A DNA stretch of 64,000 bases from a virus, in the IMG/VR virus record IMGVR_UViG_3300021420_000001, positions 32,001 through 96,000 of that record, one strand, 5' to 3'. The notes under the pieces are model-generated. The model saw only the letters and a program-made list of their open reading frames with translations, made no database searches and was not told where the DNA came from. The position numbers were made by a program, and so were the translations under genes. The stretch's first letter is position 1; each line of letters starts with the position of its first letter. Shown here in pieces: positions 9,242 to 42,111 of the stretch.

Positions 9242-11674
9242 CTAAGCCGCTACCGGCTCCTCCAAAAGGTTTCGCTTGAGCCTAATGTTAGTCATTTGCT
9301 TGATCTGTTCTTCTGCTGCCGCACCGTAGCGATGACGAATCATACCTAGGTAGACGGGAGATGTGAAATACACCTGGAAAGCCATATCGCGGAAGGCAAG
9401 GACCTGTTTGGCCGTAAGACTCTGCGTACTCAACGGAAGACAATCTTCTGAATGTTGTGCGTAGCCGCTCCAATTCTTGGGCAGCTCAATCCCAGTCTTG
9501 ACGGCTTCCTCGTATAGCTTGGAGCCAGGATATGCCATTGCCGAGTAGAAGTTGGCGTACTCGGTGTTCAGTTCCATTGCCAGCCTCAACGTCGCCTGCA
9601 TAGAAGGATAGTCATCATCAGGAAGCCCGAAAATATAATTCCCAATGACATTAATACCGGCCCGTTGAATATTCCGTACAACATCCACAATGTCATCATT
9701 CTTGAGTGCCTTCTGGGCTCCATCGCGGACGTGCTTGGAACCGGACTCGATCCCGAGTGCTAGCCAGCGGAAGCCCGCCTGCCTAAGCATTTCCAATGTA
9801 TGGGGCTTGACGGTATCGATCCGCGCGTACGCCCACACATTGATCTCTTTGCCGAGTCCGGTCGCGATCAGCTGCTTGGCAATTGCCGTATAGTGACGTT
9901 CATTGAGCACGAACATCTCATCGACGATCTTGAAGGTCTTGACACCGTAACGGGCATTAAGCATGACCATCTCGTTGACGACTTCGGTCGAGTCGCGCAT
10001 CCGGTAAACGTTATTACCGAAAGGAGCCGATATGCAACAGAAACTACAATTTTTGACAAGAACGTTGTTCGCGTAAAACCATCCCGTAGCTGGAACCGTC
10101 AGACAGTAGACATCATGTACACCCTTCAGGGGCGTAACCGACACCACCCGATGATTGATCAGCTTCCCATCTTCCTGTTTATTTTTCCATGGATTGAAAT
10201 TACGGCGGCCTGCAAAATCCTTTGCATGCTTTGCCTCTACGCTTCGATAAGCCCGACCAGTCTCATGATCTGTCCACCAGCGACGTCTCACTTCTTCACG
10301 TTTTTTAGCTGCTATACGCAACTTCGCAATATAAGCAGGATCGGCTGCACGCTTCTGAGCAGCCTTACGATAATTTTCAATGGATTTTGCAGAACGTGTT
10401 AATCCTGTTAAGCCTTTTGTAATTTTAGCGCGCCATTCGGGGGTCATGTTTTTAGCGGGATTATTTGTTCGCATCCGTTCCCCAATTTCAGGATGCTGAG
10501 AAAAATGCTCTAAGGCTGATGCGTAATACTCAAGGTTATTGGGATGATCATTTGTAGAATCGTGATCTACGTGATGTACATGCTCTGTCTTTTTAAGTCG
10601 ACGTTTAATCAAATATTCCATGATCATCCGAGAACGGACCTGCCGCCCACGTCCACTCCAATTAACATATATACGTTCTACGTAAGAATTATACTCAAAT
10701 CGAAGGGCACGAACATGCGCACCCTCAACAAGATTTTGAGCTTCGCATGCCCATTGTTTTCCCTTAGCTTTTGTTTGCCCCCACTTGAACTGAAGGAACT
10801 TGTGATCAGGGGTACAATCAATATGGGTTCCATCATCAAAACGAACCCGAACGAGTTTCGACTTTCCATACTTTCGAATATGGATAGAGTCCGTAATGTA
10901 TGCTCGCTTTGATTCAGGATCAAAGGTGTATATAGGAACTCCCTTGTCACCAAAACGTTTTACGAGTTCTCGTATTGGAATATTCCCATAAATCGTATTT
11001 ACAGGAGTATCTCCTGCTAAACATTTAAAAGGGCAATTTAACGTGGTGTGAATAGAAGCGTACGGTTGGCGAGATGATCCGTCCAAAACCTGCCAATTGT
11101 GACTTCGGTACTTGTTCATTGGGAGCAAGTCCCAGGCGTTACCGTGCAAGTGCTTCATATCAATTAGAGGGGCGGACGGGTTGAGATAAACATTATCACC
11201 GTCACGCCAAACGAGGCCAGGGATGTCGTCTTGGTCTTGTCCCGTAAGCAAGCCTAAGATGGTAACCGGACCCTCACCAACACAGGCATAGTCAATCGAT
11301 TCCTCCTGCATCGTTCGCTGGGGAAGGGCTGAGACATGTCCGCCAACCATGATGATCGGAGATTCTACAGCTAGCCGTTTGATTGCTTTAGAAATAGCGC
11401 CAGCTCCTGGCATTTGTTGCGTAGAAGCTGATGGCTGATGCCCATAAGCTGCGATGCAAACTAGACGAGCCCGTGCCGCTAAGATGCAGGCTGCGACCTC
11501 TGAAGGAGAGAAACCTTCGGCTTCAGCGTCCAAAATCTTGACTTCAAACCCACGGTCACGAATATAGCCGGCGATCAGGCGTGCCCACATAGGGGGTTCA
11601 CAGGCGACGAGGTTCTGATCCAGGTCGCCGTAAGCAGTTGTGCTCGGCGGATTGACGATCAACAAATCAAGCAT
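9242..11674 (-). CDS. Cobalamin-dependent radical SAM enzyme (class B methyltransferase-like), intein-containing
   Basis: B12-binding N-domain (LLIVNPP, VKILDAEAE, IMVGGHVSALP, GEG). The CxxxCxxC motif is CPFK|CSFC after intein removal. Also FKIVDEMF, LGIESGS, YIFGLPDD, YPGSKLY. Spliced product 485 aa. Confidence 0.9.
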   Translation of the reverse strand: MLDLLIVNPPSTTAYGDLDQNLVACEPPMWARLIAGYIRDRGFEVKILDAEAEGFSPSEVAACILAARARLVCIAAYGHQPSASTQQMPGAGAISKAIKRLAVESPIIMVGGHVSALPQRTMQEESIDYACVGEGPVTILGLLTGQDQDDIPGLVWRDGDNVYLNPSAPLIDMKHLHGNAWDLLPMNKYRSHNWQVLDGSSRQPYASIHTTLNCPFKCLAGDTPVNTIYGNIPIRELVKRFGDKGVPIYTFDPESKRAYITDSIHIRKYGKSKLVRVRFDDGTHIDCTPDHKFLQFKWGQTKAKGKQWACEAQNLVEGAHVRALRFEYNSYVERIYVNWSGRGRQVRSRMIMEYLIKRRLKKTEHVHHVDHDSTNDHPNNLEYYASALEHFSQHPEIGERMRTNNPAKNMTPEWRAKITKGLTGLTRSAKSIENYRKAAQKRAADPAYIAKLRIAAKKREEVRRRWWTDHETGRAYRSVEAKHAKDFAGRRNFNPWKNKQEDGKLINHRVVSVTPLKGVHDVYCLTVPATGWFYANNVLVKNCSFCCISAPFGNNVYRMRDSTEVVNEMVMLNARYGVKTFKIVDEMFVLNERHYTAIAKQLIATGLGKEINVWAYARIDTVKPHTLEMLRQAGFRWLALGIESGSKHVRDGAQKALKNDDIVDVVRNIQRAGINVIGNYIFGLPDDDYPSMQATLRLAMELNTEYANFYSAMAYPGSKLYEEAVKTGIELPKNWSGYAQHSEDCLPLSTQSLTAKQVLAFRDMAFQVYFTSPVYLGMIRHRYGAAAEEQIKQMTNIRLKRNLLEEPVAA
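10049..11023 (-). mobile_element. Intein (325 aa) with HNH endonuclease and NUMOD3-like segment
   Basis: Starts CLAGDTPV, block B IDCTPDHKF, ends VYCLTVPATGWFYANNVLVKN followed by Cys+1. Internal HVHHVDHDSTNDHPNNL. Visibly AT-richer than the exteins. Confidence 0.93.
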
Positions 11675-16844: not shown

Positions 16845-17225
16845 TCAATTCAACTTATCGAATTTGACGACCGTCGGCTTCGGCTTATTCTCAGGATCAG
16901 ACTTGAAAAGCCAAGTCGTATAAGCATCCAGGTCTTCGCGGGTCAGAAAGAATTCCCATTGACCATCAAAACTTCCGTCCCCGTTAATCTCCGTAAGCAT
17001 ATCCGCAACGTCAAAAGCCATCAGTGCGGGCGGAAGGTTCTCAGCCTTGAGTTCGTCACTCCGATCGATCTTGATCAAAAGTATACCGGGTTCGAGGAAC
17101 TCTACGATCTCACCCCACTGGCTGTACTCGTTACCGCAATGAAAAACAAACTTGCCGACGAAGCTGTTGTTCATGAAAATACATTCCAATTGCCAAAGTC
17201 CTCGACAAGTTCTGCTGCAAAACAA
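16845..17225 (-). CDS. Hypothetical protein
   Basis: Acidic ORF in operon orientation; true start probably MNNSF. Confidence 0.55.
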   Translation of the reverse strand: MFCSRTCRGLWQLECIFMNNSFVGKFVFHCGNEYSQWGEIVEFLEPGILLIKIDRSDELKAENLPPALMAFDVADMLTEINGDGSFDGQWEFFLTREDLDAYTTWLFKSDPENKPKPTVVKFDKLN

Positions 17226-17749
17226 TCTACTTTGTAGTCTTTGCGCCCACCCGCTTCCTCGGCAAGGATATTCTTTGCCGAATTCCTGACGCCATTGATG
17301 CTATGCGTCAATTTGAGAAGCTTGTCCTGCTCGGGACCACCTTCCCGCGCGTGCGCCTCATTCTCCCAAATATATCGATTCGTAAGTTGTATTAATGTGA
17401 TCGCCATAATCGCACGGGCAGTCAACTTGTGGTCAAGCTCATTTAGGATGATGTCAATGTCATGAAGGATATCCGCGCGCTCTTGCAGATAGTGATCACG
17501 TTGTTTCGGGATGAACACCATTTTCTGTTGTGTGATCGTCAAGCGGTCGACCAAATCACTTAATGTCGGAAGATACCGGCGCTGCGGGATCTGATTTGGA
17601 ATAGAAACTACTGCAGCCGCTTGACGTGGTCGCTGGGATGGAAGGTCTCGTGTTTGGAATCCCGGAATTCCGGTCGTCACATCCTCAGGCACGTCGGCTC
17701 CAAATTCATCCACGATTGACCCCACTATGCAACTGCCTTCTGCTTCCAC
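17171..17749 (-). CDS. Helical protein (DUF6165/DUF4254-like), often adjacent to glycosyltransferases
   Basis: TLSDLVDRLTITQQK...TNRYIWENE...INGVRNSAKN pattern, recognised by eye. Confidence 0.55.
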   Translation of the reverse strand: MEAEGSCIVGSIVDEFGADVPEDVTTGIPGFQTRDLPSQRPRQAAAVVSIPNQIPQRRYLPTLSDLVDRLTITQQKMVFIPKQRDHYLQERADILHDIDIILNELDHKLTARAIMAITLIQLTNRYIWENEAHAREGGPEQDKLLKLTHSINGVRNSAKNILAEEAGGRKDYKVDCFAAELVEDFGNWNVFS

Positions 17750-27234: not shown

Positions 27235-30171
27235 TCAGTTCAATTGCGCGCAAGGCAGGTGGGTAGCAAGGTTGAGTTCCTGATTGTCCGAAGTCAGAAC
27301 CGTACACTGCAACAGGTACGTCACGTTGGCCACGCAACCCGCGAACTGCTGCAGGACAGCCCGACCGAAGACCCCCGCAGGAACCCCAGGGAAGGCCGGA
27401 GGGACGGGTCCGATCTGGGAGGCCCCAAAGACTATCCCCTGTGGGTTAGGGTCCTGGGTGAGGCTTACACCCGCGTTGGCGACCGTTATCCCGACAATCG
27501 AGGCGATCGTGACGCCAGACCCGAGCCAAGGGTCGAAATTGAACGTGACAGTTACCTTCTCCACGGTGGGATCGATAACCGAGAGATCATTACCATAAGG
27601 CATGCCCATAACCCTTGGCGTTGTCACAAAGGTGCGGGCGGAGCCCTGTTTGGATGGCAGCGTAGAATTCGGCGCGTTCGGATTACAGACAAAGCGTGGG
27701 TCTGTAATGAGCAGCGCTGTCGGGAATAGGATTGCGCCATTGCGCCAGTAGAAGCCTTGCCACGCGGGAATGTCGGCCGGAACGCTACTACCGTAATTCC
27801 AATTCTGTATTGGCGGAGTTACGACCGTTGGCCGGTTCGTGACGTTGGCGTTGACTTGACCCAACCACTGCCAGAATGGTTCATCAAATGGACGGGTCTG
27901 GAATTTCCACAGTGGTGCAGAAGGCTGACCACCAGCTGTTACAATTGGCGTAAGTAGGGTATTACTCTTTGGCCCGAACTGCCAACCACTGGAATCATCT
28001 TGCCCAAACTTCCAAGGAATGTAGATGAAAGGTTCGTTGACGACAGGAACAAGGTTGATGTTCCTTGGCTTGGAACCTGACTGCCAACTAGAAGAGTCAT
28101 CGAAACCGTAACACCACGGCGAATACGTAAACGGCAGCGTTGGTACAAACGGAGTTAGATTTATGTTACGAGGTTTAGACCCAGACTGCCAATAGCTTGA
28201 ATCGTCCTGACCGAACTGCCACGGCGTATAAATGAAAGGCTCTACAACAACGACGGGAATAAGATTAACGTTCTTAGCCTTAGTCTTCAGTTGCCAAACG
28301 TCATCATCAAAAGGACGCGTTGAATAGAAAGCCGGACGTAGAACGGTCTTGGGTCCGGGAGGTAACGTTATCAGTGCAGCGGCTGTTCCCGTCCAATTCC
28401 AATTACTCGAATCATCAAAGCCGTAGCGCCAGGGGGAATAAGTGAAAGGTAAGGTCGTAACTGATGCAACCAGATTTATGTTCTTGGCGACAGGAAGCCT
28501 TTGCCAAACGGGCATGTCGTCTGGAGGACTATAATACCAAGTAGAAATTGATGGGAATTGAACACTCGCGGCTGCGTTCAGATTGTACGGGGCTTTGAAC
28601 TGCCAAGTGCTTGAATCGTCAACGCCAAATTTCCAAGGGGGGCTAACGGTGGGGGTATTCCCCGATGCAATTAAATTAGCATTACGCTCTATTGCCGGTT
28701 GCCAGATAAAATCATCTGAAGGACGTGAAGCGTAAAAGGGCGGACGTAGAACAGTTTTATTTGTAGGCGCATTCAACAGCGTGTAGAACGTCGCTGAACC
28801 TACCGCATTGGATTGCTGCCAATTAGGCTGATCATAATTGGCAAATGAATATGCCCAATTCTGCTTGAATGGATTCGTAGCCGCAACTGTAAGAAGGCTG
28901 CGGTTATTCGTAGAGGGCTGTCTCCACGCAGAAGAATCATCTAGGAGGTAATCCCAACGCTTTGTCAGAACTTGACCAGGAGCCCCAAAGAATTTAGTCC
29001 CGGTAAGGATCTCAAGAATGCCGGAATTGTAATTCTCGGGAGTGCCTTGCCAAGCAGATTCGGCGATATCGTAATCAAACTTCCACAACCAAGGGATGTT
29101 AACAAACGCCTCAGAGACTTGAAGCGGGCTACGGCCTTGTGAACTAAATTGCCACCCCGAAGAGTCATCGTAATTGTATAGCGGTCCCCACCTTTTAGTT
29201 GGAGGTTGTCCACCAACATCCAATAGCACAAGAGTATTTGCATTACGATTGTCGGCCGTCGGAGCCCAAATGAAATCGTCCGATGGTCGTGGCGCAAAGA
29301 AAGCTGGACGCAGGACCGTCTTAGGTAAAATACTTGCAGCTAAGCTACGGTTGTATGGTGCAGAAGCGAATGACCAAAGGGAAGAATCATCAATACCATT
29401 CAAGAAAGATCGAGCGGGTTTCTTGTTGACAAAAGCAGAGACATAATTGATGACGATAAGACCGTTAGCACCTACGCCCGCAGTACCTCCAGTAGTAGCC
29501 CCGCCACCGCCGGCGCCGTAATTACCGCCAGCACCGGCTGTGCCCGTTGTACAGCCACCGCCACCGCCACCAGACCCATGAGAAGCATCATACTCCGTGC
29601 CGGGATTTCCTGCAGTACCACTCGTTGTCCCACCGGCGCCGCCTGTGCCTCCTGAAGTACCGTCTCCCTGACCACCAATACCACCGTTACCCACAGTACC
29701 ATTGGCGCCAACATTGCCAGCTCCGTTAGGGCCACCTGCACCGCCACCGCCTCCAGCATCGGTCGAGACTGATCCGCCGTTACCGCCATTATTTGCAGAG
29801 GTACCTACGCTAGCAGCGGCAGTCCCACCGAGTCCGCCAGTTCCCCCACCTCCAGTGACAGCAGCAGCGCCCGCAGCTGCGCAACTGACTGTATTACCAT
29901 TCGCAACAGCATTAGCTAATGAAGTAGCATTAAACCAAGTGTCGTTACCCTTTTGTCCTGTTGCTCCACCAGCACCAATCCCAACGTTGAGAACGGCGCG
30001 TGGTGTAACAGTGAGAATACTCCGTGCCCAGGCGCCACCTCCGCCACCGCCACCTGCGCCGGCTCCGCCAGCACCACCAGAACCAGAGCCAAGGCAATCA
30101 ACAACAACCTGAACGCAATCGTCAGGAACCGTCCAGGTCGTCGTACCGTTCAGTAGGAAAATCTGAGGCAT
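27235..30171 (-). CDS. Large putative virion appendage protein: Gly-rich domain, ~16 Trp/Asp repeats, C-terminal fibre-adaptor-like domain
   Basis: N-term TWTVP..VDCLGSGSGG...GANGLIVINY polyglycine domain. Central PWxFGxDDSSxWQ repeats. C-term DPTVEKVTVTFNFDPWLGSGVTI...YLLQCTVLTSDNQEL. Confidence 0.75.
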   Translation of the reverse strand: MPQIFLLNGTTTWTVPDDCVQVVVDCLGSGSGGAGGAGAGGGGGGGAWARSILTVTPRAVLNVGIGAGGATGQKGNDTWFNATSLANAVANGNTVSCAAAGAAAVTGGGGTGGLGGTAAASVGTSANNGGNGGSVSTDAGGGGGAGGPNGAGNVGANGTVGNGGIGGQGDGTSGGTGGAGGTTSGTAGNPGTEYDASHGSGGGGGGCTTGTAGAGGNYGAGGGGATTGGTAGVGANGLIVINYVSAFVNKKPARSFLNGIDDSSLWSFASAPYNRSLAASILPKTVLRPAFFAPRPSDDFIWAPTADNRNANTLVLLDVGGQPPTKRWGPLYNYDDSSGWQFSSQGRSPLQVSEAFVNIPWLWKFDYDIAESAWQGTPENYNSGILEILTGTKFFGAPGQVLTKRWDYLLDDSSAWRQPSTNNRSLLTVAATNPFKQNWAYSFANYDQPNWQQSNAVGSATFYTLLNAPTNKTVLRPPFYASRPSDDFIWQPAIERNANLIASGNTPTVSPPWKFGVDDSSTWQFKAPYNLNAAASVQFPSISTWYYSPPDDMPVWQRLPVAKNINLVASVTTLPFTYSPWRYGFDDSSNWNWTGTAAALITLPPGPKTVLRPAFYSTRPFDDDVWQLKTKAKNVNLIPVVVVEPFIYTPWQFGQDDSSYWQSGSKPRNINLTPFVPTLPFTYSPWCYGFDDSSSWQSGSKPRNINLVPVVNEPFIYIPWKFGQDDSSGWQFGPKSNTLLTPIVTAGGQPSAPLWKFQTRPFDEPFWQWLGQVNANVTNRPTVVTPPIQNWNYGSSVPADIPAWQGFYWRNGAILFPTALLITDPRFVCNPNAPNSTLPSKQGSARTFVTTPRVMGMPYGNDLSVIDPTVEKVTVTFNFDPWLGSGVTIASIVGITVANAGVSLTQDPNPQGIVFGASQIGPVPPAFPGVPAGVFGRAVLQQFAGCVANVTYLLQCTVLTSDNQELNLATHLPCAQLN
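27720..29440 (-). repeat. Array of ~16 degenerate ~30-45 aa protein repeats
   Basis: Cores in order: IDDSSLW, SDDFIW, YDDSSGW, YDIAESAW, LDDSSAW, YDQPNW, SDDFIW, VDDSSTW, PDDMPVW, FDDSSNW, FDDDVW, QDDSSYW, FDDSSSW, QDDSSGW, FDEPFW, ADIPAW. Confidence 0.88.
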
Positions 30172-30197: not shown

Positions 30198-30440
30198 TTA
30201 ACGAAGAAGCATGTTCGGGAAACCAAGCGAGGTCTTTGGTGGAACTTCACCTACGACTTCTTCAGGAGGTACTGCCGACCCCACAACGCCTCGATAGCAA
30301 CCATCACAAATAGGTGGGTCGAACGGAGTCGTCATTGGTATCTGTAGGATACGGCGAAGTGCCTCGACCTCTGCAAGCGATCGACGTTCTCGCTCGAAAG
30401 GTTCGAGGCACCAACCACAAAGCAGTGTCTGCTTAGCCAT
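30198..30440 (-). CDS. Small Zn-finger-like protein
   Basis: CGWC...CDGC. Confidence 0.6.
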   Translation of the reverse strand: MAKQTLLCGWCLEPFERERRSLAEVEALRRILQIPMTTPFDPPICDGCYRGVVGSAVPPEEVVGEVPPKTSLGFPNMLLR

Positions 30441-30467
30441 TTGTACGTCCCAGAAAAGTATACTACG

Positions 30468-30977
30468 TCAGAGCGACTCGTACACCATATGACTTCCGAC
30501 CAATCCGGGAGTACCGCCTGTGAAGGCCGAGAGTGAGACCTCCCCAAGCGAGGCCGTATTGCCCAAGACGCTGAAGCACTCCTCTAGGCGGTTGGCGCGC
30601 CAGAAGTAGACGCCACCAAAAGCATTGAGCGAGCAGTTCGCCAAGTGCAATGTAGACGATCGCTGAGGTGGTGTCGCATTGATATTACCCGTCAGGGCCG
30701 GAGCGGCAAGCGCGGCAGTGGCCGGATCAATCGCGGCGTCGGTCACACCCGTACCGTTCGAGTTGGTAACACCGACCGTGGAGTCCCTGGAGAGTAGCAT
30801 GATCGTCGGGGACGAGGACGAAGGGGCCTGGCCCGCAATCGAGATTTCCCATACCTTGTTCAGCTGGGTAGCCGTACCACCCTGTAGGATGAACGGATAG
30901 GTGCCACTCGTCATACCAGTCGTGTCGGCAAAGGCAGTCGGGGTCAGGGTCGTATTGGAAACAATGCGTCTAGCCAT
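30468..30977 (-). CDS. Beta-rich Ser/Thr-rich putative structural (fibre subunit) protein
   Basis: 169 aa; strong SD (AAGAGGAG); C/G-ending codons like the capsid genes. Confidence 0.65.
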   Translation of the reverse strand: MARRIVSNTTLTPTAFADTTGMTSGTYPFILQGGTATQLNKVWEISIAGQAPSSSSPTIMLLSRDSTVGVTNSNGTGVTDAAIDPATAALAAPALTGNINATPPQRSSTLHLANCSLNAFGGVYFWRANRLEECFSVLGNTASLGEVSLSAFTGGTPGLVGSHMVYESL

Positions 30978-32730: not shown

Positions 32731-34794
32731 TTAGCTGCTTCCGTTTGCAATCGCAAACGCCGGAAAGGATTGATAAGGAGAACTGTAAATATCTCCAGGA
32801 TACATGCTCCAGGGGAGGTTTCCAGCCAGGGTGAAGTACGCACCCATAGAACCCGCTGGAAGACCGGGTGTAGTCTTAAATTGAGATATCAAATCTTGGA
32901 TAATCTGGTTAAAGGTAGAACTGTACTTGTACCCAGTCAACATGACATCGATCTTGCCGCCAGAGCCGCCGTAGGTTGTGCTAATACCGATGCTCGTACA
33001 TTGCGCCGTTGTAGGCGCTTGCGCTTCATAACCACCCTCGTATAGCACAAATGGCAAGCCGTAGGTAGCACCCTGCGAAACCCACCCAGGGTAAAATATT
33101 CCTGAATGCGTAGCCAAAGTCTCTCCTCCAGCCACGCTATTCTTTTTTCCGTTACGGACATCTGCGTTTATCCAAGCAAATGCAGCATCATTATTGCCAT
33201 TAGCGTAATTATCCGCTGCTCCAGTCAACCCAGCAAGATCTCCCGCTCCATAAGTTCCACCGTACGCCGGACCAGCGCATAAGATCGCACCAGCAAAGTA
33301 ATTAGCGAACGAGAAAACATCCGCGTAATCGATGGGACGACCATTACCCCCCGCACCCACTGTCTGATTGTAACTTACGCCGATGATGCTGGCATAGTTT
33401 GGGAACGTAGCAGTGTTTAAATCGGTCCCTTGCCAGCGGTAGATGTCGGTGGCTACAGGATCATTGACTTCCCCCTGCGCCATAACTCTCTTGAAGTTTT
33501 TCTGACCGCCGTAAGCCGTAGTTATCAAGGCCATCGTCAGTCTAAATCGAAGCCCATAAGTGGAAAAAATATATCTGGCATTACTGCTCGGGAAACCCAA
33601 CGCAGTGCCTACTGCACCGGCCCAGGATGATTGCTCGAATCCACTGGAAATGTTCCAAATCTCATTTGAGTATTCATAGTAACAATTCAGATCTTTCCGT
33701 AGATTGTTTTTTATGTAGGTCGCATCAGCCGTGATGTAGGCATCAGTTGCATGGACCGGAATGTGATACCACATATCCATCCCAAGCTCGTTGCACATTT
33801 CCACCATTGCGAAAACAGGAAGACATTTGATACCTAAAGCACTTCCACTACCCAACCAGGCCCCCAAAATACTATCATATACCAAAGTCCAACAACTACC
33901 TGCCGAAATGGCGCCAGACCCCAAATTCTGGGCACTCATATTGAAAACCGGAACCCCTACTGTTCCATTTAGGGTTAGAGTTACATTGCCAGTGTTTGCT
34001 GCATTAAACTGAAGTTGTATCGTCTGTCCTTGCGTGAGTGTAGCTCCACTCACTGTTACTGAATATGTATTCCCGGAGTTTGTTGTTGAGCCCCCCCAAA
34101 CTGTCGGCTCCCAACGGTTGGTGTAGCAAATTGCCGTAGATAGGCAATTCATTCCAACACCAGCTAAATTGTTGTTACTGTCGCAGTTATCAATCGTCGG
34201 CATACGGACGATCTTTGGATTCAACCTTTTCATAATGCTAAGAAAATCGGGATTGAACATGAGACCGGCATTCAAAGCCGGTCCATCAGCTTTTCGATAA
34301 AGTCGCAATTGCGTCAGATTGATAGTAGCTCCAGAAATAAATCCAGCCTCACAACCACTAAGCGTGCTCGGAGGAACGTTAAAGGTAAACTCTACAGATC
34401 CATCAGTACCAAATACTCCCAGATCAAATTGGGTAGTATACACAAAAGAATTACCAGCATAGACAGTAACTCCCGTACCAAGGCTAATTACCATCCCGTG
34501 GTTGCTAGAATTACCAAGCACGCCTTTCCAATCAAGAACCCAATGTCCGGTATATGATGAAATCGGCTGGATCAGGAAATTTATACTCGAAGATAAAGTG
34601 CCAGTCGGAAAGTTATTGTTGTCCAACATTCCAGGAAAAGCAGTGGTACCATTGTTAGTAAAAGTCCCCATCAAGAACATGTTCATGTAAGGGTACGGAT
34701 AAGGCATGTAGTCAATATTCAAGACATTCGAGCCTGCGGGTAATGCCGCAGAACTAAAGAAATTTCTAACCGCTCCCCCACCGCCAAGCAGCAC
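32731..34794 (-). CDS. Glycoside hydrolase-like (TIM-barrel, clan A-like) protein with inserted fibre-type domain
   Basis: FNPDFL..LNPKIVRM, MVEMCNELGMDMWYHIP, YYEYSNEIWN (NE acid/base-like), VLYEGG (nucleophile-like). Insert NTYSVT...FNAANTGNVTLTLNG...GAISAG..LVYD. Confidence 0.65.
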   Translation of the reverse strand: MLLGGGGAVRNFFSSAALPAGSNVLNIDYMPYPYPYMNMFLMGTFTNNGTTAFPGMLDNNNFPTGTLSSSINFLIQPISSYTGHWVLDWKGVLGNSSNHGMVISLGTGVTVYAGNSFVYTTQFDLGVFGTDGSVEFTFNVPPSTLSGCEAGFISGATINLTQLRLYRKADGPALNAGLMFNPDFLSIMKRLNPKIVRMPTIDNCDSNNNLAGVGMNCLSTAICYTNRWEPTVWGGSTTNSGNTYSVTVSGATLTQGQTIQLQFNAANTGNVTLTLNGTVGVPVFNMSAQNLGSGAISAGSCWTLVYDSILGAWLGSGSALGIKCLPVFAMVEMCNELGMDMWYHIPVHATDAYITADATYIKNNLRKDLNCYYEYSNEIWNISSGFEQSSWAGAVGTALGFPSSNARYIFSTYGLRFRLTMALITTAYGGQKNFKRVMAQGEVNDPVATDIYRWQGTDLNTATFPNYASIIGVSYNQTVGAGGNGRPIDYADVFSFANYFAGAILCAGPAYGGTYGAGDLAGLTGAADNYANGNNDAAFAWINADVRNGKKNSVAGGETLATHSGIFYPGWVSQGATYGLPFVLYEGGYEAQAPTTAQCTSIGISTTYGGSGGKIDVMLTGYKYSSTFNQIIQDLISQFKTTPGLPAGSMGAYFTLAGNLPWSMYPGDIYSSPYQSFPAFAIANGSS

Positions 34795-35274
34795 CTAGAA
34801 GTTCCCCCACCAACCGCCAGGACCCCACCCCCCAAAAACGGGCCAGGGGTTTGCGGGTTTTGGTGCTCCAGGCAAATATCGCATAGTACGGAAAGGACTA
34901 CTTGCTAACCAGTACATCGATCCGAAAGTAGTCTGGTTCCACCAGCTAGCGTTCGCGTTGACCGGCATCGGCATTTCAGTCGCTACACTGACCGAGCCTT
35001 CTGATGCATTCGTAATACGCCCAACCACATTTGGATCACGATTGGGTTGGCCTGTATTGTCCGGCTTAGGCGCAAACAACTGCACGATATGTGCCGTCGC
35101 CAGATTGAGGAGATTGGTCTGCGTCGTAGCATCCTGCACAGGACCACCACCGTCATTACGATGTACCTGGGTTGCCAAATTCCAGTACATCGTGGCCTGA
35201 GCAGAACTCAAATACGAAAACTGGGGAAATAATTGAACCCAGCTGTCGTACGAGAAGGGTACAATAACACCCAC
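34795..35274 (-). CDS. Head-to-tail connector (DUF4054-like)
   Basis: FPQF, LLNLATAHI, VGRITNASEGSVSV, WWNQTTFGSMYW, FRTMRY. Confidence 0.88.
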   Translation of the reverse strand: MGVIVPFSYDSWVQLFPQFSYLSSAQATMYWNLATQVHRNDGGGPVQDATTQTNLLNLATAHIVQLFAPKPDNTGQPNRDPNVVGRITNASEGSVSVATEMPMPVNANASWWNQTTFGSMYWLASSPFRTMRYLPGAPKPANPWPVFGGWGPGGWWGNF

Positions 35275-39678: not shown

Positions 39679-42111
39679 TCAAACTCGGGCAACCTTCATC
39701 GAGTCATCCATGCCGAGCTTTCGGACGGCATCCTCGATTGCAGCCCAACGGAGTTCTTCCGGAACCTTATCACCAATCCTAACGTCAGTACCAGCGCGAC
39801 CCTCTTGGCAAACAGCAAGATGATTTGCGATGATGTCCACCATCTTCCCATCGTAAGGTACGCCCTTATACTCGCCCGGCTCCATTAGGGCCTTGTATCT
39901 GTAACCACAGCTCAGTTCGCGTTTCTCCCCCGACTTGATTGCGTCAATATCGTCCTGAGACCAAATGACCAATGAATTACGCAAATAAGGATCATCAAAC
40001 TCTGCATCTGTACCCGTAGCACCAATCACTTCATCTGGTTGATGATCATCCGCCGAAACTGGGATGTGCTCACGTAGAACCGGGATGCCGTTGAAGGTGG
40101 GGGCGGCTTTAGCGAGTTCGTCCGGGTCGCGCAGGAGTTGATACACCTTGTCAGGGTCCAATTTGAGCGTACCGTCCTCGTCCGGTATCTCTTTGCCCAA
40201 GTACGGGCAAACGTTGGCCTTACTAATATTCGCAACAGTTACATGCAATCGACCATCAGCATCGTACTCACGCACGGACTTATCGAGGGCAAGTACCAGC
40301 TTATCGTCAGAGGCCCGAATGCTTCTATCTAGCGCGGCCCACTTGGCTTCGTCCTGTACCACCTTAGTATCTTCAGCACCACTTTCCTTCAATACATCTA
40401 CGCCATCAATCTTTGCAGACCAAATCTTGTCGGCCCCATCTCCATCGAAATTTGACTTGAACGGGTTCTCGTCCTCCTCGACGACTACATTTCGAGAAGA
40501 CCCTTGCGCCCCCAACCGCCAGATAGAACGTAGAAACCCAGCCATGTTGAAATCGCCATCGTACTCGATCTCAACCTTATGCTCAGGTTCCTGCTTACTG
40601 TCCATCGTGACTTCAAGATCACCATGGTGGTGCGGAATAGGCTTGACGTCAGCATCCTTGGGTGGATTGCGTGGCGTCAGCTTCTCGATCCTGGACTCTT
40701 GACCACGGAACCAGGCGCAGAGCGCATCCCAATCAATGCCTTGTTCCTTACAATATTGTCGTTCGCTGGGCGTTCCAGCGGCATTGTGGGACTGAAGATA
40801 GATTTGCTTCTTTTCTTCGGTCTTGGGCTTACGTCCATGCTCTTCTTCGAACTTCTCAATGCGCGTTCGAATCTCGTCCAGTTCCGGTACTTCATGATGG
40901 ACTAGGTCTTCGACAACATCGACAATCTTGCCATTGATCTCTACAGTCTCCGGCAGGTTGCGATTGACGTACATGGTCTCGCCGTCTTTCGACATGCAAG
41001 AGACCCAAGGACCATCATGAGTGTGGTCAATCTTTACGGCGTAGGTATTCTTGGGCGTGAAAAGCTTGCACCAACCGTTCGGATCGATAGGGTCCTCAAC
41101 GAGTTGGCAGTGCGAAATACCACCTTCCTTGAAATCGTATTTGCAGATCGAGCAGTGAGACTCTGGCTTGCCGTTGCCGTAATCGACTTCTTGTTGAGAG
41201 AGCTTGGCGTCATAGGCTTCACAATCTTTGGCCTGCTTCGCCGCCTTTTTAGCTTCTCGATACGCAACGGCTTCAGCATTTTGGCGCTTAGTAAGATTGA
41301 ATTCCTGCAAATCGTAAGGATAAACAGCGATAACTTTTCCAGACGAATCAACAACCTCGTACTTTCCAGGGGAAAATTTAACAGTTGCGGCATCCTCCGC
41401 ATGCTCGTCTTCCTGTTCCTCCTCGGACAGGAACTTCATCAGCCCGTCTTTGAGTCCAGCCCAATCCTCAGGCGTCATATCTTCACCCGCCTCGGAACCA
41501 AGTTTGGTCTTAAGCGTCTTGGCTACAGCGGGATGAAGAGGTTGCGGCAACTGGTCCAAACTCGACCAGCAAAACCCACTATGCTCACCGTTCAGCTTAG
41601 GGACGAACTTGGCCGCTACAGGCTGAGCAAACGTATGGAACGCCATTCCTGTCGGAGTCGTAACCTTGTCCAGCAGCTTTTTCTCGCCGCTGGGCTTGCC
41701 GCCAATTTCCTCACGTGACTCGCGGTCAGCGGCTTGTTCTGGGGTCTCACCCTCCTCGGCATTACCACCAGGGAGCGCCCAATGGCCCGCGTAGTTCTCT
41801 TCCTGGGAACCACGACGGAGAAGTAGGACCTCGCCATCAGGTGCGACAAATAGTATACCAGCGGCAATACCACCCTCGTTAGATTCTTCGTCCTTACCCT
41901 GTGCAGCACGACGCTTTGCCTCAAGCCGCGTCTTCTTCTCCCACTCTTTCCATTTACGCTCGCCCTCAGTTTCTGGCAAGTCGTAACGCCCCTTCATCTG
42001 CTCGCGAGACTTAAGCGCCTCGCTCTCATCTTTACGATAGCCCTTGTAAGGTTGCTTCTCGCGCTTGGGGGCGTCTTCAGCGAGACTCTTGGGTACATAG
42101 CGTTCTACCAC
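39679..42111 (-). CDS. Multi-domain prohead protease: NUDIX + HiPIP-like Cys motif + further domains + C-terminal DUF2213-like protease
   Basis: Nudix box WALPGGNAEEGETPEQAADRESREEIG; CSIC...CQLVEDPIDPNGWCKLF; ISKANVCPYLGKEIP, ELSCGY, NHLAVCQEGRAG. Confidence 0.87.
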   Translation of the reverse strand: MVERYVPKSLAEDAPKREKQPYKGYRKDESEALKSREQMKGRYDLPETEGERKWKEWEKKTRLEAKRRAAQGKDEESNEGGIAAGILFVAPDGEVLLLRRGSQEENYAGHWALPGGNAEEGETPEQAADRESREEIGGKPSGEKKLLDKVTTPTGMAFHTFAQPVAAKFVPKLNGEHSGFCWSSLDQLPQPLHPAVAKTLKTKLGSEAGEDMTPEDWAGLKDGLMKFLSEEEQEDEHAEDAATVKFSPGKYEVVDSSGKVIAVYPYDLQEFNLTKRQNAEAVAYREAKKAAKQAKDCEAYDAKLSQQEVDYGNGKPESHCSICKYDFKEGGISHCQLVEDPIDPNGWCKLFTPKNTYAVKIDHTHDGPWVSCMSKDGETMYVNRNLPETVEINGKIVDVVEDLVHHEVPELDEIRTRIEKFEEEHGRKPKTEEKKQIYLQSHNAAGTPSERQYCKEQGIDWDALCAWFRGQESRIEKLTPRNPPKDADVKPIPHHHGDLEVTMDSKQEPEHKVEIEYDGDFNMAGFLRSIWRLGAQGSSRNVVVEEDENPFKSNFDGDGADKIWSAKIDGVDVLKESGAEDTKVVQDEAKWAALDRSIRASDDKLVLALDKSVREYDADGRLHVTVANISKANVCPYLGKEIPDEDGTLKLDPDKVYQLLRDPDELAKAAPTFNGIPVLREHIPVSADDHQPDEVIGATGTDAEFDDPYLRNSLVIWSQDDIDAIKSGEKRELSCGYRYKALMEPGEYKGVPYDGKMVDIIANHLAVCQEGRAGTDVRIGDKVPEELRWAAIEDAVRKLGMDDSMKVARV

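Follow-up and report, generated by a model that had tools for sequence, protein, structure and literature searches.

A proposed C-terminally anchored neck fibre built on a Trp/Asp repeat chain in an uncultured soil myophage

What is the role of a 978-residue protein, composed largely of short Trp/Asp-containing repeats, that is encoded in the neck module of an uncultured phage? The gene for this protein, hereafter P0001, lies in a stretch of 64,000 nucleotides (the window) that corresponds to bases 32001-96000 of a virus record from a soil metagenome assembly (IMG/VR record IMGVR_UViG_3300021420_000001); the record is complete, 111,480 bp long and has direct terminal repeats. An earlier reading of the letters alone (the sequence-only reading) had described a 978-residue open reading frame (ORF) with 16 units between a glycine-rich domain and an adaptor-like end, and this layout has now been confirmed by profile, Pfam and structure match. 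We propose that P0001 is the backbone of a neck fibre that is anchored by its C-terminus and whose repeats dock a co-inherited 169-residue protein; the full statement is given a probability of about 45%. The P0001 gene is divided as follows.

27235..30171, minus strand: whole ORF of P0001, ATG start, 978 residues; backbone of the proposed neck fibre
29422..30171, minus strand: glycine-rich N-terminal domain, residues 1-250, assigned from Pfam PF21722 and Gly content; proposed distal head
27718..29421, minus strand: 16 repeat units of ~35 residues, residues 251-818, assigned from profile, motif statistics and AlphaFold2; three are of the KTVLRP..RPxDD subtype
27601..27717, minus strand: linker between the repeats and the C-terminal domain, residues 819-857; predicted local distance difference test (pLDDT) score low to middling; conserved in P0001-P0004
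27238..27600, minus strand: C-terminal immunoglobulin (Ig)-like Gp77/collar-like domain, residues 858-978, assigned from Pfam PF23148 and structure; proposed neck anchor

The closest homologs of P0001 are P0002-P0004, which lie on contigs of 43-53 kb; for the P0002 locus, a 3.9-kb fragment (L005) was read.

The anchor domain and the repeat chain

The AlphaFold2 model of the C-terminal domain is confident, with pLDDT values of 94-98. Its best structural match (VIA, top of 992 chains) is gp77 of the Ralstonia podophage GP4 (PDB 8JOU, chain 8jou_B), which has the same Ig-like fold and superposes over all of its modelled residues (89/89) with a Z-score of 9.5, a root-mean-square deviation of 2.0 Å and 20% identity. 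Next in rank are the collar proteins of the Agrobacterium phages Milano (gp13, PDB 8FWC; Z 8.9) and 7-7-1 (PDB 9RKT; Z 7.9), the wall-domain fold of which matches the P0001 domain and which are likewise from myophages. Generic Ig domains score at Z 7.2 or less, below all three of the neck-collar structures. The adaptor-like end of the sequence-only reading is thus borne out, first by the GP4 adaptor and then by the neck collars. Against Pfam PF23148, the family named after this GP4 fiber-tail adaptor, the domain scores 25.5 bits (E 2e-5; curated cut-off 27), and 17 of 27 aligned relatives also match the family at E<=1. A search of the PDB by sequence with the profile of the domain gave nothing useful.

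Both gp77 and gp13 form 15-mer rings round the neck with its dodecameric head-to-tail adaptor, and the GP4 ring anchors one chain-like and one trimeric fibre (PMC11445570, PMC10491603, PMC13730344). In Milano, the collar surrounds neck protein 1 with 15-fold symmetry (PMC10491603) as part of a disulfide-linked sheath of four rings that bears no fibres, whereas the P0001 domain is preceded by a chain of ~850 residues. GP4 gp77 is a free protein of 93 residues from a podophage, whereas in P0001, from a myophage, the domain is fused C-terminally to the repeat chain. Encoded upstream of P0001 is a candidate docking ring.

34795..35274, minus strand: DUF4054 head-to-tail connector, assigned from Pfam DUF4054 and phrog_302; candidate docking ring for the C-terminal domain

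This protein matches the head-to-tail connector of phage E217 in the PDB (E 7e-4), and the P0001 gene sits between the connector gene and the tail sheath gene. It is likely that the C-terminus of P0001 serves as a neck anchor and, by analogy with the known collars, its C-terminal domains probably assemble as a ring of 15 copies.

An exhaustive phmmer search with residues 246-978 against 1.84 billion representatives returned 202 matches, which were sorted with our own profiles. The C-terminal domain without the repeats was found in 59 of the 202. Some 30 of them stand alone as proteins of 110-120 residues starting with MPxGND, and in the remainder the domain is mostly located at the C-terminus of unrelated proteins of 500-1060 residues; Laminin_G_3 occurs in 5 of 28 scanned proteins with the domain. 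The stand-alone forms span 88-120 residues, including the 88-residue form of locus L015 described below. The repeats are carried by 94 of the 202 matches, ten of which also have the C-terminal domain, and the repeat proteins form about 94 clusters at 50% identity. A tblastn search of 50,697 cultured phage records with whole P0001, its C-terminal 161 residues, and the 169- and 118-residue proteins encoded nearby yielded nothing meaningful, and two IMG/VR scans yielded no relatives.

The 16 units at residues 251-818 were delineated by an iterated profile seeded with five units, which gave per-unit E values down to 3e-17. Their consensus in P0001 is PF..PW.[FY]G.DDSS.WQ....N.NL, and the protein contains 12 D-D-x-x-W motifs spaced ~35 residues apart. 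The two subtypes of unit noted previously are both present, with the rarer KTVLRPxF..RPxDDxxW occurring three times as claimed (residues 284, 472 and 608), and the richness of the region in Pro, Trp and Asn, also noted then, amounts to 10.8, 5.4 and 7.4%, respectively. There is no DNA-level tandem repeat with the period of the ~35-residue unit in the gene; the units are therefore old and have been preserved at the level of the protein. Conservation was assessed in 695 units of distant homologs, which yield the consensus P-F-x-P-x-x-W-x-[YF]-x-Y-D-D-[PAS]-[SAP]-x-W-x-G-x-P-x-x-[NS]-x-x-L-x-P-L-L-T. Of these units, 98% retain the second Trp, and the two Asp residues are retained in 81% and 78%; by this measure, the motif is under strong selection. 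Among homologs the repeat number, counted with the iterated profile, ranges from 12 to 26.

Many stand-alone repeat proteins also open, right at the N-terminus, with the KTVLRP..RPxDD unit. That P0001 has three of these units (window 27718-29421) suggests that a block of one such unit and several ordinary ones was triplicated to form the array.

No Pfam or PHROG family and no PDB entry covers the repeats. When modelled by AlphaFold2 with an 85-sequence alignment, residues 248-845 lack secondary structure and have a pLDDT of ~35. The ESM Atlas model is no better (pLDDT 0.52), the Atlas matches are only disordered-like look-alikes, and a Foldseek search with the full-length model gave weak matches, the best at E 3e-3. 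The sequence-only reading had recognised no fold in the units and had pictured the region as a string; both views are supported in that neither AlphaFold2 nor ESM Atlas predicts a self-contained fold, such as a solenoid, and neither Pfam nor PHROG holds a repeat family for it. Together with the conserved aromatic residues, the lack of a predicted fold in these models points to repeats that fold on assembly, either with themselves or with a partner.

In the N-terminal domain, Gly accounts for 34% of residues 1-245, and residues 8-243 match Pfam Gly_rich_2 (PF21722) at 39.5 bits, above the curated cut-off of 24.3. A search of the PDB by sequence gave nothing useful for this domain. The 254-residue ORF upstream of P0002 in L005 has no significant similarity to the N-terminal domains of P0001 or P0004.

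A cassette inherited with the repeats

One metagenome scan and one genome scan produced twelve related loci, eight of which could be evaluated for synteny. In all eight, one of them a T7-like podophage, the repeat protein is encoded just downstream of a homolog of the 169-residue neighbour of P0001. The two stand side by side in L005, L006, L007, L009, L010, L011 and L013; a homolog of the 118-residue protein is present in each of these seven except the short L010, and a homolog of the 80-residue protein in four of them (L005, L007, L009, L011). The contig end truncates L008 and L012, and the L014 sequence runs no further than the 169-residue homolog. On the basis of its portal, capsid and nozzle, L009 is the T7-like podophage, and the cassette therefore crosses morphotypes. 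Its small members in the window are the following.

30468..30977, minus strand: 169-residue jelly-roll protein, assigned from synteny and AlphaFold2; candidate for the co-inherited partner
30198..30440, minus strand: 80-residue CxxC...CxxC protein; homologs in L005, L007, L009, L011 and L015
31045..31401, minus strand: 118-residue four-Cys protein; homologs, 42-83% identical, in L005, L006, L007, L009, L011, L013, L014 and L016

In the related loci, the homologs of the 169-residue protein are 46-92% identical to the window protein, and the repeat proteins are 24-42% identical to P0001. The sequence-only reading had named the 169-, 165- and 118-residue neighbours as possible partners of the repeats. 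Conserved synteny retains the 169-residue protein, accompanied by the 118- and 80-residue proteins, and removes the 165-residue protein, which, like the 271-, 687- and 206-residue neighbours, has no homolog in the twelve related loci. The 165- and 169-residue proteins are not paralogs of each other, and the former is not like the bead protein gp80 of phage GP4.

On contig L015, which falls in the bin of a Bryobacteraceae genome, homologs of the 169- and 80-residue proteins are followed by the modules of P0001 as separate genes. These encode a 264-residue Gly-rich protein that is the counterpart of the N-terminal domain (E 1e-14 against its profile), a 441-residue protein, a 543-residue diverged repeat protein (E 1e-12, ~14 units) and an 88-residue collar protein (E 1e-22). 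By these sequence matches, L015 has P0001 divided into several genes, and it links the three modules to a single assembly. In L016, the 169-residue homolog is followed by a 215-residue protein with three or four ~35-residue PFV..DWPNP units, which are not significant against the repeat profile (E 0.25). The cassette contigs L014, L015 and L016 were binned with genomes of Terracidiphilus and Bryobacteraceae (both Acidobacteriota) and of Anaerolineaceae, which hints at the hosts of this phage group.

At 90% identity, the family of the 169-residue protein falls into at least 1498 clusters, nearly all with a length of 169-171 residues; identity to the query is 67-92% for the best 120. Neither a Pfam family nor a name is attached to any of the clusters, and the nearest ESM Atlas clusters are viral. 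The AlphaFold2 model is a confident jelly-roll (pLDDT 93). Searches of the PDB by sequence with the 169-, 165- and 687-residue proteins gave nothing useful. The gene has a strong GAGGAG ribosome-binding site, and that of the P0001 gene is weak. Another study's metatranscriptome library, also from soil, includes two contigs, of 238 and 158 nt, that are identical to the 169-residue gene at window 30436-30871, and DNA carry-over is possible; contigs from this library fall on the P0001 gene only on the Gly-coding stretch, with several letters different, and contigs cannot rank expression. Neither observation was used as evidence.

A search for longer forms of the 169-residue protein returned a single fusion, the 576-residue metagenome protein P0279. 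Its N-terminal jelly-roll (51% identity) is followed by a Pro/Trp-rich region with DWPxP motifs and by C-terminal PASTA domains (PF03793), the latter of which suggest a cell-wall-binding end in some relatives. The 80- and 118-residue proteins match no family. They contain paired CxxC motifs of zinc-ribbon-like appearance and, judging by these motifs, could be fibre assembly factors.

Bead-on-rope fibre, trimeric shaft or glycan carrier

In the proposed arrangement, the phage would be an uncultured 111-kb soil myophage with a head and neck resembling those of PB1/E217-type phages. The C-terminal domain would work in the manner of GP4 gp77 and the Milano gp13 wall domain, ringing the dodecameric head-to-tail connector and thereby tying the chain to the virion. 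The repeat region, ~570 residues in length, would be an extended string with no fold of its own, and each unit would present a conserved P-F...W-x-[YF]-x-x-D-D-x-x-x-W patch. Copies of the co-inherited jelly-roll protein would most likely dock onto these patches, perhaps one at each repeat. The number of repeats would set the length of the bead-on-rope fibre, as in the chain-like fibres of the podophages GP4 and A1002, and the glycine-rich N-terminal domain would form a distal head, possibly with the role of an adhesin.

The docking of the 169-residue protein is proposed because its synteny is fixed across phage types and the repeat chain has no fold of its own, and also because GP4 provides a precedent, a rope-and-bead fibre anchored by this adaptor fold. 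In chain-like fibre I of that phage, the adaptor domain holds a rope protein and small beads, the latter encoded upstream of the adaptor (PMC13730344). GP4 gp79, tentatively taken to be the rope, has ~18-residue Gly/Ala repeats unlike those of P0001 and is not found in the PDB by sequence. A partner far better conserved than the repeats would be expected under docking, since one surface must then fit many variant units. The Pseudomonas podophage A1002 offers a further likeness, albeit one by description. Its nozzle-rope gp39 has serial docking sites for small proteins of 147-171 residues encoded by adjacent genes, and an Ig-like end (PMC13730344). There, docking of the fibre dimers gp40 and gp41 on the rope is shown, whereas for P0001 docking is inferred, and the A1002 rope is part of the nozzle, whereas P0001 is proposed to lie at the neck.

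Several observations weigh against this proposal. Anchoring by the C-terminus is the reverse of that in most phage fibres. The PF23148 score lies 1.5 bits below the curated cut-off, and hhalign of the C-terminal domain with gp77 alone gives a probability of 10% (E 0.003). The structural matches of the 169-residue protein are generic, with Z <=7.4, and include the HFTV1 turret (Z 7.4), collagen VIII NC1, C1q, TNF heads and phage cement proteins. It has no BLASTP similarity to the GP4 bead gp80, which also falls outside the top 50 of 48,161 chains structurally. The single jelly-roll per P0279 chain hints at a 1:1 ratio rather than one copy per repeat. Finally, prediction of the monomer cannot separate a rope from an obligate trimer.

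The last two points lead to the main rival, in which a ring of 15 C-terminal domains would gather the chains in threes to give five fibres, the repeats would fold only as a trimeric β-structure, and the 169-residue protein would be a cap, a trimerisation nucleus, a chaperone or a separate part of the virion. Trimeric phage fibres often give low-confidence AlphaFold2 models as monomers, as is the case here, and the fold of the 169-residue protein comes closest to the trimeric heads of C1q, TNF and collagen NC1, from which trimeric stalks are nucleated. There is a precedent as well, in that a 15-mer collar feeding five trimers (PMC11445570) has been proposed for gp53 of the Pseudomonas phage DEV, there via an N-terminal domain. 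The long fibres of DEV and the neck fibres of the Anabaena myophage A-1(L) display a 15-fold neck ring with five long flexible fibres, and those of A-1(L) are chains ~100 nm long of 16 beads joined head to tail without a rope (PMC11445570, PMC10966104). The collar domain of DEV is N-terminal, whereas that of P0001 is C-terminal, and no sequence relation to DEV or A-1(L) was found. A trimeric shaft would, however, not account for the far stronger conservation of the partner relative to the repeats, and bulky Trp residues together with 11% Pro are, as a matter of general knowledge, unusual in the cores of known trimeric β-helices and β-spirals. We consider this arrangement possible, yet on the doubtful side.

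A further explanation, compatible with either structural model, is that the repeats are mainly a display scaffold on which Ser or Trp residues are modified by enzymes encoded downstream. The gene for P0001 is indeed followed by glycosyltransferase, methyltransferase, DegT, epimerase and radical-SAM genes, its DDSS content is the highest of the family (eight of its nine strict D-D-x-x-x-W motifs), and sugar genes likewise accompany the repeat protein of L012. Against this, Ser occupies the two DDSS positions in only 11% and 32% of the 695 distant units, and the L012 motif has no Ser. Sugar genes lie near just two of about ten loci, namely the window and L012, and the matches in the latter are a homolog of the ORF at 17171-17749 and a weak epimerase match. 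The other related loci have no homolog of the sugar-enzyme genes of the window, apart from one weak methyltransferase match in L015. The suggestion of the sequence-only reading that the DDSS serines are glycan acceptors is accordingly poorly supported by the Ser frequencies and by the lack of sugar genes at most related loci. Glycosylation may occur in this particular phage, but it does not explain the repeat, and a primary function as a glycan carrier is improbable.

Least probable is that P0001 is not a neck appendage at all, its Ig-like domain being a generic fold employed elsewhere, for instance on the surface of the capsid, at the baseplate or in a protein outside the virion, and its repeats a disordered linker: Ig-like folds are common, many Ig domains match at Z 6-7 and the Pfam Gp77 score is below its cut-off, but three independent phage neck-collar structures outrank the generic domains, the gene lies in the neck module, and the conserved aromatic residues are atypical of disordered linkers.

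Genomic setting and significance

All genes in this region are on the minus strand. Upstream of P0001 are those for a MuF-like head protein, a NUDIX-protease fusion, a minor head protein, the major capsid protein, which also matches that of Pseudomonas phage E217 in the PDB, and the DUF4054 connector. The connector and P0001 are separated by ORFs of 687, 165, 271, 118, 169 and 80 residues. Downstream of P0001 lie a 206-residue ORF, two glycosyltransferase and three methyltransferase genes, followed by genes for an E1-like thiamine pyrophosphate (TPP) protein, DegT, an epimerase, an intein-bearing B12 radical-SAM protein and a DUF3383 tail sheath. The glycosyltransferase, methyltransferase and radical-SAM genes that had been read from the letters downstream of P0001 are thus all present, with sugar-enzyme genes in addition. 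Beyond this island are a tape-measure homolog, a baseplate hub and wedge, and a 412-residue tail fibre. A complete baseplate and tail-fibre set is thus encoded elsewhere, and the P0001 gene is positioned in the neck module; therefore, P0001 is an accessory appendage gene in an island that splits this module. P0001 was also considered as the tape measure and was rejected in that role, a 382-residue tape-measure homolog being present in the tail module.

Three other genes of the region deserve mention. The B12-binding radical-SAM gene (window 9242-11674, minus strand) is interrupted by an intein with an HNH endonuclease, as indicated by Pfam B12-binding, Intein_splicing and Radical_SAM and by PHROG HNH matches. 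The NUDIX-protease fusion is an 810-residue protein (window 39679-42111, minus strand) in which a NUDIX hydrolase (residues 82-199) is joined to a DUF2213 head-maturation protease (residues 614-782). The 687-residue ORF at the head of the island (window 32731-34794, minus strand) has no Pfam, PHROG or PDB match. It contains YSNEIWN, and the 441-residue protein of L015 (9775-11100) contains FEIWNEEN, the sole spot at which the two can be aligned (E 0.04); from these motifs, both may be virion-carried glycosidases of the clan GH-A type.

As kinds of structure, collar-anchored neck fibres and rope-like fibres are already known. No description of the repeat, the family of its partner, the cassette or the reversal of polarity was found in the libraries and literature searched. 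Tentatively, the Trp/Asp repeat, the 169-residue jelly-roll protein and the two zinc-ribbon-like proteins might constitute an undescribed rope-and-bead system, a portable four-gene cassette attached by its C-terminus, which would serve myophage necks and podophage tails via exchangeable end domains and the length of which would be set by the number of repeats, about 12 to 26.

Neck or collar fibres and rope-and-bead fibres have been resolved only recently and in few cultured phages. The present analysis suggests that a version unrelated to these in sequence is common in uncultured soil phages, some contigs of which were binned with Acidobacteriota. The locus offers a compact four-gene module in which the control of appendage length by a repeat chain can be studied, and a large family of "hypothetical" viral proteins gains an annotation. 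Should the C-terminal collar domain prove to be an anchor in general, it could serve as a marker for neck appendages in metagenomic phages.

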